Shown: positions 34,010 through 37,549 of the stretch, one piece after another
Layout: every line of letters begins with the position of its first letter
Numbering within the stretch: the stretch's first letter is position 1
IMG/VR virus record: IMGVR_UViG_3300036546_000172
Coordinates: 32,001-96,000 of that record
DNA: 64,000 nt
Strand: one strand, 5' to 3'
From: a virus
Lineage: Duplodnaviria > Caudoviricetes
Position numbers and translations under genes: made by a program
The notes under the pieces: generated by a model
The model's input: the letters and a program-made list of their open reading frames with translations, nothing else
The model's database searches: none
What the model was told of the DNA's origin: nothing

Positions 34010-34402
34010 ATGCAGACATTTGCGCAATTTATCAACGAGACGCCGTCATTCTCTGCGTTCTTGATCTCACGTGTCTCTATGCCCCAGATTCGCAACGTCT
34101 CTGATTTCGGTCAATTCTTGGACCAGTTAGGTGTCAGCGGAACATACACTGAAATAGATCCTCAAAATTATAATCCTACTCAAACAGACTTTGATCAATC
34201 TAAGGTGGATCGACTGATCGCAGCTGAGGACCAGGAGACTACCCCTATCATCGTCAGTGAGGATAATTTCGTAGCTGACGGTCATCATCGATTTTATGCC
34301 GCGCTTCAGTCTAGTAGTACGGTTCAAGCTCTGATAGTAAATCTGCCTATCAACAAACTGTTAAAACTCATGTACGATTATACTGAGCTAAGAAATGGCT
34401 GA
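34010..34402 (+). CDS. ParB/sulfiredoxin-like protein with capsid-targeting-like N-terminus
   Basis: PTQ..F...KV, PIIVS.D.FV.DGHHR; N-terminus MQTFAQFINE. Confidence 0.7.
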   Translation: MQTFAQFINETPSFSAFLISRVSMPQIRNVSDFGQFLDQLGVSGTYTEIDPQNYNPTQTDFDQSKVDRLIAAEDQETTPIIVSEDNFVADGHHRFYAALQSSSTVQALIVNLPINKLLKLMYDYTELRNG

Positions 34403-35534
34403 TATCACCATTACCAAAATAAGCGATGTTTGGATGAAGGTTGTGTGCTCCGAACGCTGGATGGAGCTCGATCTGAACGATCGCTTCAAATTCGAGGTGC
34501 CAGGCGCTAAGTTTGATCCACGCGTGAGAGCTGGTAAGTGGGATGGATTTAAGAAGCTCTATAACAGAAAGACTCGTCGGATGTACACCGGTCTTCTGTT
34601 CAAGCTTTTAATGTTTTGTGAAGACAAGAAACTGACATACCACATCGATCCTGACCTGGTACCGCCTGGTGATGAGATTGATGATGAGGATTTAGACCAA
34701 TTGATCTCGTTGATTCAGCCTCACTCTGATGGTCATCCGGTCAATCCATACGATTACCAGCGCGAGGCTGTTAAGTACATGCTCAGTATGGATCGATCTA
34801 CAATTCTGGCAGCTACATCAGCTGGTAAGAGTCTCATACTGTACCTGGCCATTCGCATATATCAGTTGCTTGATGAGATGCAGGACAAGACAATCTTTGT
34901 CATTGTACCATCCACTTCATTGGTTGAGCAGCTATACTCAGATTTCGAAGACTATTCTTCATTCAAGGATTCTAACTGGACGGTCAGCTCCCACGTCCAG
35001 AAGATATCTGGCAAATATTCAAAGTTTGTGAACAAGCAGGTAGTCGTTACAACCTGGCAAAGTCTAGACAAATTACCGCACAGTATCTATGAAGATCTGG
35101 GTGCGGTGTTTGTGGATGAGACTCATACGGCATCTGCTAACATTTTGACTAATATTTTGGAGCGATGTACTACCACTCCTCATCGTCATGGGTTGACGGG
35201 CACTTTAGATGGCTCCGAGTGTTTGCACGGCGATTCAGAAGTAAGAATGCATGATAATTCATTAAAGAAAATAAAAGATATTGTTGTGGGTGATTTAGTA
35301 AAAACCTTAAATGAATCTACTGGGGAAATAGAAAATAAAGAAGTTAAATATATATATAAGAATCTATCAATTTCAAAAAAGGAAAGAAGATTTGAAATTG
35401 AGTTTGAAAATGGAAAGGTTCTTAGATTAACAGGAAATCATAAGGTATTTGTAAGATCATATGGGTGGAAAAGAGCTGATCAGCTTGAAGAAGGTGATGA
35501 TATCATTTGTGTAGAGGAGTATTATGAATTATAA
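34395..35534 (+). CDS. uvsW: UvsW helicase N-terminal half fused to split-intein N-fragment (starts at Cys276, nt 35220)
   Basis: WDG...LY, PYDYQ, ATSAGKS, VDETH, GLTGT, then intein block A CLHGDSEV and block B LTGNHKVF. Confidence 0.92.
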   Translation: MADITITKISDVWMKVVCSERWMELDLNDRFKFEVPGAKFDPRVRAGKWDGFKKLYNRKTRRMYTGLLFKLLMFCEDKKLTYHIDPDLVPPGDEIDDEDLDQLISLIQPHSDGHPVNPYDYQREAVKYMLSMDRSTILAATSAGKSLILYLAIRIYQLLDEMQDKTIFVIVPSTSLVEQLYSDFEDYSSFKDSNWTVSSHVQKISGKYSKFVNKQVVVTTWQSLDKLPHSIYEDLGAVFVDETHTASANILTNILERCTTTPHRHGLTGTLDGSECLHGDSEVRMHDNSLKKIKDIVVGDLVKTLNESTGEIENKEVKYIYKNLSISKKERRFEIEFENGKVLRLTGNHKVFVRSYGWKRADQLEEGDDIICVEEYYEL

Positions 35535-36402
35535 AAGGATATACAATGAGTTAATATCAAATGCTCTGGAGAGGAATATTGAAGATGGCGTGTATTATGA
35601 GAAGCACCATATTGTTCCTAGATCGTTGGGAGGAACTGATGATGCGATTAATCTTGTTTGTTTAACCGCTAGGGAACATTTTGTTGCACACTGGCTTTTA
35701 TGGAAATTTAGTGAAGGAAGAGACAAATATAAGATGGGGCATGCTTTCTTTAGAATGTGTTACCATAATTCAGATAATAGAAAGATAAAGTTAAAACCAA
35801 GAGATTATCAATATGCGCGAGAAGCACATAGAGAGTCTGCAAGATATTTTCACACCGGTAAAAAGTTATCTGAAGAACAAAGAAAAAGAAGAAAGACCCA
35901 CAACCCAAATGCAAGAAAATGTATAATAGAAGGGAAAGAGTTTAACGCCATTTCATTAGCTGCAGAGTATTATGGTGTCACTTCAGCTAAAGTAAGAAGA
36001 TATCTTGATGGAGATGGAACTTTAGAGTGGTTAAAAGGAGAAACAAGGTATGCGAACAAGGAAATAGAGAACAAGGTATACATCAACAATACAAATAATG
36101 GAAGAAATCACAAGATAACAGAAGATGGAAGAAAACGTGTTATAGAGTCAAATAAGAATAGAAAATGCAGTGAAGAAACTAGAAGAAAGATAGGCGAAAA
36201 AACAGCAAAGAATACATATATTGTACATCCAGACACAAAAGATATTATTATAGTGAGGGGTAGGAAATCTTGGTGTGAAGATAACGGATATAGCAAAAGT
36301 ATGCTACATAATATTGTAAATTCAGAGAACCCTATCCACAAAGGAGAATATATAGGGTATTATGTATATTCTGAGGAAGAATATGAAAATAAAAAAGATT
36401 AA
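35524..36402 (+). mobile_element. Free-standing HNH homing endonuclease (MobE-like) between the intein halves
   Basis: YYEKHHIVPRSLGGTDD..NLV.LTAREHFVAH; NUMOD-like GKKLSEEQR and CSEETRRKIG; AT-rich. Confidence 0.9.
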
Positions 36403-37237
36403 AGAAACTTATGATGATTATGAAACATACAATCTTCATATTGAAGATAATCATAATTATTTTGCTGAAAGTGTTCTAGTTAAAAATTGTAATGAGATGG
36501 TGATTGAGGGACTGCTTGGTCCGGTTAAGAGGATTGTAACGTCACGCGAAATCATAGATCAGGGACGCGCCTCGGACATTGAGGTCAGAATGTCTATGGT
36601 TGAATATCCGCAGTCTGTTTTATATGAGTTAAAAGCCGCCTGTGATCAACTGCCTCCTAAGCAGAGATACGCCAAGGAGATTGAGTTCATCAACAGTTAC
36701 GAACCTCGCTGCAGATTCTTATTGGACATGATTCAGTCTATGCCAGGTAATTCTCTGGTGCTGTTTGATCGAGTAGAAGGATACGGTAAGGAATTGTATG
36801 AAGCTCATCTGCAGGTACATGAGCATGTGTTTCTTATTGTAGGTGATGTAGATGTAGATCGACGTGAAGAGATACGTCAGATCATGGATCAATATGACGA
36901 TGCAGTAATCTATGCCAGTTATGGCACGATGCAGCAGGGGGTCAGCATCAAGAAACTGCATAACCTGTTTCTGATTTCATCATCTAAGTCTGTGATTCGA
37001 ATCTTACAGTCTATTGGTCGAATGATGCGATTGCATGATTCTAAATCCAAGGCTCGGATTTTCGACATCGTGGATAATATGACTATCGATGGAAAAGAGA
37101 ACTACGTGTTGAAGCATGCACAAGAGAGAATCGGAATGTACAGTCAGCAGCAGTTTCCAATCGAATTTGATCAATATTCAATTTCACGATATATCGAAGA
37201 ACCTTCTGAGACTAATTCTCTCCAATTCTATGACTAA
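36383..37237 (+). CDS. uvsW: 35-aa split-intein C-fragment fused to UvsW helicase C-terminal half
   Basis: MKIKKIKE...TYNLHIEDNHNYFAESVLVKN/C, then LVLF..VE..GK, ASYGT...GVSIK.LHN, SKS.IRILQSIGR.MR; RBS GAGGA 36373-36377. Confidence 0.92.
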   Translation: MKIKKIKETYDDYETYNLHIEDNHNYFAESVLVKNCNEMVIEGLLGPVKRIVTSREIIDQGRASDIEVRMSMVEYPQSVLYELKAACDQLPPKQRYAKEIEFINSYEPRCRFLLDMIQSMPGNSLVLFDRVEGYGKELYEAHLQVHEHVFLIVGDVDVDRREEIRQIMDQYDDAVIYASYGTMQQGVSIKKLHNLFLISSSKSVIRILQSIGRMMRLHDSKSKARIFDIVDNMTIDGKENYVLKHAQERIGMYSQQQFPIEFDQYSISRYIEEPSETNSLQFYD

Positions 37238-37288
37238 GGTATATCCTAACTTACCTATGCTTGTAAAATTGGAGAGCGATAGAGAGAT

Positions 37289-37549
37289 TCAGTCTCTCGT
37301 TTGATTAAACATAGCAGCCATAGCCTGTTGAACGTTGCTGCATCGAATCACACCTCTTTTCATATACTGATCAATTTCTGATCTTGTGATGTTATGATCA
37401 CTCATGAAAGCAGTTTGAATCTGAATATCTGACTCATATCGATGACGATTAGTCTCATTGCGGTTGTGCTCAAACAGATATTCAGATTCACGAGTGTTGT
37501 CACTCAATGTCATGTACTGCTTGATGATGTTCTGTCTTTTGTTATCCAT
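37289..37549 (-). CDS. Hypothetical protein
   Basis: ATG 37549 preceded by AGAGGA, overlapping the RNase H stop. Confidence 0.5.
   Translation of the reverse strand: MDNKRQNIIKQYMTLSDNTRESEYLFEHNRNETNRHRYESDIQIQTAFMSDHNITRSEIDQYMKRGVIRCSNVQQAMAAMFNQTRD

Follow-up and report, generated by a model that had tools for sequence, protein, structure and literature searches.

The uvsW repair-helicase gene described here belongs to a virus for which IMG/VR holds a complete 137,942-bp genome with terminal repeats. We analysed a window of 64,000 nucleotides, bases 32001-96000 of that record, and positions refer to the window unless stated otherwise. The host of the locus is a marine T4-like phage, and its uvsW lies in pieces. 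Three open reading frames (ORFs) cover 34395-37237 of the plus strand in frames 0, 1 and 2, with a stop codon, a ribosome-binding site (RBS) and an ATG at either junction. The N-half ORF (34395-35534, 379 aa) encodes UvsW residues 1-275 and then continues from CLHGD through TGNH to EEYYEL and a stop; this added part is the N-terminal fragment of a split intein (IntN). A homing-endonuclease ORF of the HNH type comes next. The C-half ORF (36383-37237) opens with the C-terminal intein fragment (IntC), and the C-terminal helicase half of UvsW follows after the residue at position +1, a Cys (Cys+1). The features are collected in Table 1.

Table 1. Features of the fractured uvsW locus, in window coordinates.
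Feature	Position	Strand	Description
uvsW N-extein	34395..35219	+	275 aa; UvsW_N domain, helicase motifs I-III; C-terminal end GLTGTLDGSE
IntN	35220..35534	+	104 aa (35220-35531) plus TAA stop; Cys1 (CLHGD), block B TGNH, acidic tail ...LEEGDDIICVEEYYEL
RBS of HNH gene, GAGGAG	35514..35519	+	within IntN ORF; 4 nt upstream of ATG 35524; read from sequence
HNH homing-endonuclease gene, MobE-like, free-standing	35524..36402	+	292 aa; overlaps of 11 nt with IntN ORF and 20 nt with IntC ORF
RBS of IntC/C-half gene, GAGGA	36373..36377	+	within HNH ORF; 5 nt upstream of ATG 36383; read from sequence
IntC	36383..36487	+	35 aa, MKIKKIKE...NHNYFAESVLVKN; terminal Asn, end VLVKN
uvsW C-extein	36488..37237	+	249 aa plus stop; opens with Cys+1 (36488-36490), CNEMVIEGLLGP...
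Terminator-like hairpin downstream of uvsW	37282..37298	+	consensus scan; weak evidence

Both flanking parts are recognizably helicase. The N-extein matches the Pfam models UvsW_N, ResIII and DEAD as well as phrog_16259 (DNA helicase, 2.2e-68), and it is 51% identical to the helicase of Pseudomonas phage pf16. The C-extein matches phrog_9690 (DNA helicase, 1.2e-56), and the UvsW helicase motifs are intact across both halves. The insert between them, 35220-36487, is foreign in base composition: its GC content of 25-36% compares with 42-47% on both flanks, a drop of 10-15 points with sharp edges. No near-identical DNA was found among GenBank phages, and a single-sequence search for close IMG/VR relatives of the N-half returned none.

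This locus had previously been interpreted from its letters alone as a uvsW gene fractured by a naturally split intein, with an HNH gene between the halves. What that sequence-only reading observed holds in every detail. The three-ORF anatomy, the placement of both RBSs inside the upstream ORFs, the AT-rich insert, the 524-aa spliced product with its GSE-CNEM junction, the acidic and basic intein ends and the penultimate Lys in place of His are all borne out, and the searches described below confirm that the middle gene is MobE-like and that the flanking pieces are intein halves. Its suggestion that the arrangement might be new fared less well, as discussed in the final section.

Intein halves, insertion site and nuclease gene

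IntN scores 39.5 bits against the Pfam model Intein_splicing (cut-off 35.8), covering positions 2-95 of 155, and it also exceeds the cut-off for Hint. IntC aligns to positions 122-155 of the same 155 (E 0.0016), and the two fragments are therefore complementary halves of one model. An AlphaFold model of IntN, built with 44 relatives, has a pLDDT (predicted local distance difference test) of 87. Nearly all of the PDB matches listed for it are inteins or related Hint or BIL (bacterial intein-like) domains, with probabilities of 0.98-1.00, and they include NrdJ-1 and gp41-1; the best TM-score among them belongs to the Npu DnaE N-fragment (4qfq_A; TM 0.77/0.79, root-mean-square deviation 2.5 A over 103 columns).

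The residues expected of a class 1 intein are complete. Cys1 (35220-35222) stands directly after GSE, T71 and H74 lie in the TGNH of block B, and Asn35 and Cys+1 meet at VLVKN-C (36485-36490; here and below a hyphen marks the junction of intein and extein). Across the 44 related IntNs, C1 and H74 are invariant and T71 nearly so, and many metagenomic IntCs ending in VKN-C or VSN-C share 65% identity with the window's IntC. A contiguous mini-intein relative, P0131, aligns to IntN over its residues 246-346 and to IntC over residues ~354-388; the break therefore falls in the canonical short loop that links blocks B and F, the usual place of endonuclease domains. The net charge over the final 30 residues of IntN is -4, and IntC starts with MKIKKIK (+4), yet its first 12 residues sum to only +1. 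No group I intron or other RNA family matched anywhere in 34300-37400. The insert in uvsW is most likely a class 1 mini-intein that has been broken at its endonuclease-insertion loop, with the HNH gene lying in the break.

Helicase motif III ends six residues before the insertion point. Joined without the insert, the exteins give a protein of 524 aa with the junction GSE-CNEM and the predicted junction peptide LDGSE-CNEMVIEGLLGPVK. Two intein-less alleles run through this point without a gap: P0004 (521 aa) is collinear and reads GSECNQM (...TGTLDGSECNQMVIEGLL), and the IMG/VR locus L014, 70% identical overall, reads GSECNEMVIEGLLGP (...TGTLDGSECNEMVIEGLLGP). Excision would therefore restore UvsW. 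No other stretch of the protein is as conserved as the one that holds the site, where codons 261-290 are 90-95% identical to those of L014; the most conserved stretches of a gene are the usual targets of inteins and homing endonucleases. Comparison with L014 revealed no co-conversion tract visible at the present divergence.

The residue equivalent to Cys+1 varies among intein-less alleles. In 80 such UvsW loci (L014-L093) it is Thr in 62 and Val in 15, with Cys, Ser and Pro found once each. The sole Cys belongs to the intein-less locus most closely related to the window, L014; P0004 likewise has Cys. Because Cys is limited to the closest intein-less relatives, it seems to travel with the intein, and its presence at this position in intein-less alleles may be a scar of precise intein loss. 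Apparent intein matches in the inspected UvsW genes of Vibrio and Synechococcus phages were a separate matter: these are ordinary, intein-less genes without a split ORF, and we read the matches as chance alignments.

The middle gene resembles free-standing homing-endonuclease genes from Met1 onward. It matches phrog_655 (homing endonuclease, 2.6e-41) and is ~30% identical to genes of T4-like phages annotated as MobE or homing endonuclease. The HNH motif is intact, and 28 homologues show no variation at H28, H29, N43, H52 or H56. Individual domain models respond less strongly: the Pfam HNH match stays under its cut-off (17.3 vs 21.4 bits), and a match to NUMOD3 is weak (E 0.14).

Relatives and mobility

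The nearest relatives separate the history of the intein from that of its host gene. The IntN of P0002, from ENA, is 97.1% identical to that in the window and its N-extein 71.6% identical; its ORF stops one residue beyond IntN. P0154, from a Logan assembly, has an IntC 100% identical to the window's and starts at MKIKKIKE, that is, at the Met equivalent to 36383, as does the annotated C-half of Proteus phage PM2. Near-identical intein halves thus sit on diverged exteins, a pattern that points to recent horizontal spread of the element.

Fractured uvsW genes recur widely in our cluster survey, which comprised the 150 best cluster representatives at 50% identity and in which the window's own protein is P0001. 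At least seven clusters besides P0001 have an IntN at the window's site with the protein ending within ~20 residues after it (P0002, P0020, P0021, P0045, P0046, P0121 and the second intein of P0024). At a site in helicase motif II (DE-C), an IntN followed by an early protein end occurs in ~40 clusters. A second lineage uses the window's motif III site as well: in the IMG/VR/JGI contigs L094 (identical to L178) and L177 the junctions read TGTLDGTK-C ... AHN-CHKLVLEG. Its HNH protein is 50% identical to that of the window and its intein halves only 35-39%.

The components of the element give different pictures of its ancestry. In a maximum-likelihood tree of IntNs, the window and P0002 fall inside the clade of motif II-site sequences, apart from the other motif III-site IntNs, and the identity of the window's IntC is 65% with motif II-site IntCs versus 39% with that of L177. 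The HNH protein of the window is closest (50%) to that of the other motif III-site lineage. These relationships suggest that the intein changed its site within uvsW or that intein modules were exchanged, although an approximately unbiased test did not reject a common origin for the whole group of motif III-site IntNs (p 0.34), and the idea is thus unproven. A fuller scenario would have the window's intein moving between uvsW sites, with the nuclease setting the target, the intein halves serving as interchangeable "antidote" modules and the Cys+1 of intein-less alleles remaining as a scar. We regard this scenario as possible but, taken as a whole, doubtful; if the Cys+1 scar were real, a full cycle of gain and loss by homing would be recorded in uvsW.

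Related nuclease genes and inteins occur in other settings. On JGI contigs, the MNYKRIY-type HNH family to which the window's nuclease belongs lies between intact split-intein halves of NrdA (L212/L220 and L219; NL-C...HN-C(Q/T)EI), and the same type lies between the halves of an NrdJ-like gene (L224; NP-C...HN-CAEI) and of UvsX (L211; SGG-C). Middle pieces with an IntC-like start and another IntN at their end occur in P0003 (helicase) and in L219:3914-4951 (ribonucleotide reductase), and these host genes are therefore in three or more parts, broken by two inteins. At L200:1451-3744, an intact uvsW has a free-standing MNYKRIY-type HNH gene directly downstream, a layout that recalls T4, where segE adjoins uvsW. 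An arrangement like that of L200 could be the state from which a nuclease gene goes on to invade an intein.

The genome itself (G000) carries further inteins outside the window. Its uvsX is fractured by a second split intein (G000 ~109,544-111,220; L009:697-1629 and L009:1807-2373) with an IntN of 92 aa from CLLPGT, an IntC of 36 aa to THN-S and a 177-bp spacer without an endonuclease gene. Its gp43-type DNA polymerase contains a contiguous, endonuclease-free mini-intein after DTDS that ends in VHN-S (G000 ~107,739-108,185; L007). With uvsW, uvsX and the DNA polymerase, three inteins therefore reside in replication and recombination genes of one genome. The uvsX and uvsW IntCs have no BLAST similarity, consistent with orthogonal pairs, and the coexistence in one phage of two very different split inteins and a contiguous polymerase intein amounts to a natural test of orthogonality.

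Trans-splicing and homing weighed against alternatives

We consider it very probable that UvsW is made by protein trans-splicing and that the HNH nuclease makes the element mobile by homing. The three overlapping ORFs would probably be co-transcribed, with each downstream ORF translated from its own RBS. A consensus scan, which is weak evidence, placed a terminator-like hairpin only after uvsW and found no such site inside the insert, and this distribution fits co-transcription of the three ORFs. The acidic tail of IntN and the basic head of IntC would then bring the two UvsW halves together to form one Hint domain, and trans-splicing through Cys1, TGNH, the terminal Asn and Cys+1 would yield a seamless helicase. 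In a mixed infection, the HNH protein would nick or cut an intein-less uvsW near the insertion site, and recombinational repair would copy in the whole cassette.

Several observations weigh against this interpretation. The terminal Asn is preceded by Lys in place of the common His; block F has Asn at a position where many inteins have Asp. A fold search with the model of the HNH protein returned weak local matches, with I-HmuI at Z 4.0 and the DNA-binding domain of I-TevI at Z 4.4. The locus shows no conspicuous promoter or regulatory hairpin that would serve the HNH gene: the T4 late promoter TATAAATA is absent, sigma-70-like sites are no commoner than in shuffled sequence, and a hairpin that would hide the HNH RBS, as at mobE of phage Aeh1, does not reach significance (z -0.8). 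At 36365-36385, a small hairpin (AUAUUCU / AGAAUAU) with the IntC RBS GAGGA in its loop is likewise not significant against shuffled sequence (z -1.4). The Lys appears to be a trait of the family and no defect, because many related IntCs end in VKN-C or VSN-C. A penultimate His is common in class 1 inteins and not obligatory, and it is likewise missing from the DnaE inteins of Npu and Ssp, the best known among natural split inteins.

The main rival explanation is that the intein halves do not splice and only dock two UvsW polypeptides non-covalently, as the tails of Aeh1 NrdA-a and NrdA-b do; in that precedent NrdA is split by mobE and the tails are perhaps degenerate inteins (PMC3045599). The penultimate Lys of the window's IntC would suit such a clasp. 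However, the four catalytic positions are all preserved, at this locus as throughout the family, both halves of the Hint domain are present at full length, and the lack of a penultimate His is shared with the DnaE inteins just mentioned. We therefore regard docking without splicing as improbable.

Alternatively, the element could be in decay, with the intein or the HNH protein inactive and uvsW dispensable or non-functional in this phage. Homing elements do degenerate once fixed, but the state of this locus gives little sign of it: all ORFs are intact, the catalytic residues are conserved, the helicase motifs are preserved in both halves, and relatives from other samples retain an IntN that is 97% and an IntC that is 100% identical. 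Decay thus seems highly improbable. Finally, the element could be an artefact of assembly or sequencing, in which two false frameshifts break up a single contiguous intein that contains an HNH domain; the sequence-only reading had itself named sequencing errors in a contiguous intein as a way to refute it. Contiguous (P0131) and endonuclease-fused (IntN in P0030 and P0087) forms do exist among the relatives, but this artefact is hardly credible given the three frames with a stop, an RBS and an ATG at each junction, the homology of the HNH protein to free-standing genes from its Met1, the failure of a search for longer fused forms (weak evidence) and the matching ORF ends in P0002 and P0154, independent assemblies that argue against false frameshifts.

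Comparison with known systems

That the uvsW locus is a further example of a known fractured-gene arrangement, and not a new kind of system, is well supported. Dassa, London, Stoddard, Schueler-Furman and Pietrokovski described fractured genes as a split intein combined with a free-standing homing-endonuclease gene, in gp41, IMPDH, DnaE, NrdA, NrdJ, ligase and terminase hosts (Dassa et al. 2009; PMC2677866). Like these, the window has a conserved phage-type DNA-metabolism gene split at the canonical break point, an endonuclease gene on the same strand between the halves, overlapping frames and opposite charges on the intein pieces. Unlike them, its host is UvsW, its site lies just beyond motif III and its endonuclease is of the HNH type; those of the 2009 study were GIY-YIG or Vsr-like, and fracturing by HNH enzymes was only predicted (PMC2677866). 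The documented repertoire of fractured genes would thus gain a recombination helicase as host and an HNH-type nuclease.

The possibility that this is a new trans-splicing pair in UvsW, raised when the locus was first read, stands in part. In the searchable literature we found no paper linking split inteins, or inteins, with UvsW in the fractured-gene sense, although one may exist. The arrangement is not rare in sequence data, however, as the clusters at the same site attest, and it also occurs in cultured phages: Salmonella phage S16 (gp114/gp114.1/gp115; L001:2814-5540), STP4-a and Proteus phage PM2 (L002:2814-5546). Their pieces are annotated as DNA helicase, hypothetical protein and DNA helicase, with the intein not annotated. 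They share with the window the host gene, the overlapping three-ORF layout, an IntN that is ~41% identical and a homologous IntC. They differ in that the insertion lies 33 residues upstream, in motif II (DE-CH), the penultimate residue is His, and the middle gene (phrog_22417; 291-292 aa in S16 and PM2) is not HNH and gives weak TnsA-like and NUMOD3 matches. The uvsW halves of the S16 and PM2 types call for annotation as one trans-spliced gene.

Compared with the split inteins Npu and Ssp DnaE, gp41-1 and NrdJ-1, the window's pair is similar in build, with an IntN of ~100 aa, an IntC of ~35 aa, Cys1, TxxH and a terminal Asn. It differs in its low identity to them (22-28%), in its SE/CN junction residues and in its penultimate Lys, and its splicing is predicted from sequence. 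As a compact natural pair of 104 + 35 aa with Cys1/Cys+1 and an SE/CN junction, it is a candidate tool.

The closest parallel to the nuclease side of the locus is phage Aeh1, whose nrdA-a / mobE / nrdA-b genes in pieces were reportedly described by Friedrich in 2007. There, as here, a T4-like phage has a MobE-type HNH gene inside an essential gene for replication or repair; the ORFs overlap, the insert is low in GC and both halves have added tails. In contrast to the window, where the tails are complete intein halves with catalytic residues, those of Aeh1 are not recognizable inteins, and its halves stay separate. Crona et al. (2010; PMC3045599) found that Aeh1 NrdA split by mobE works through interaction tails and speculated that these may be degenerate remnants of a split intein. 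The MobE-like HNH genes that separate intact split-intein halves of NrdA, of UvsX and of an NrdJ-like gene in metagenomes support this idea of Crona and Edgell that the Aeh1 mobE tails derive from a split intein. By comparison with Aeh1, the uvsW locus and the JGI loci that combine HNH genes with split inteins look like the intact ancestral state that Crona et al. proposed.

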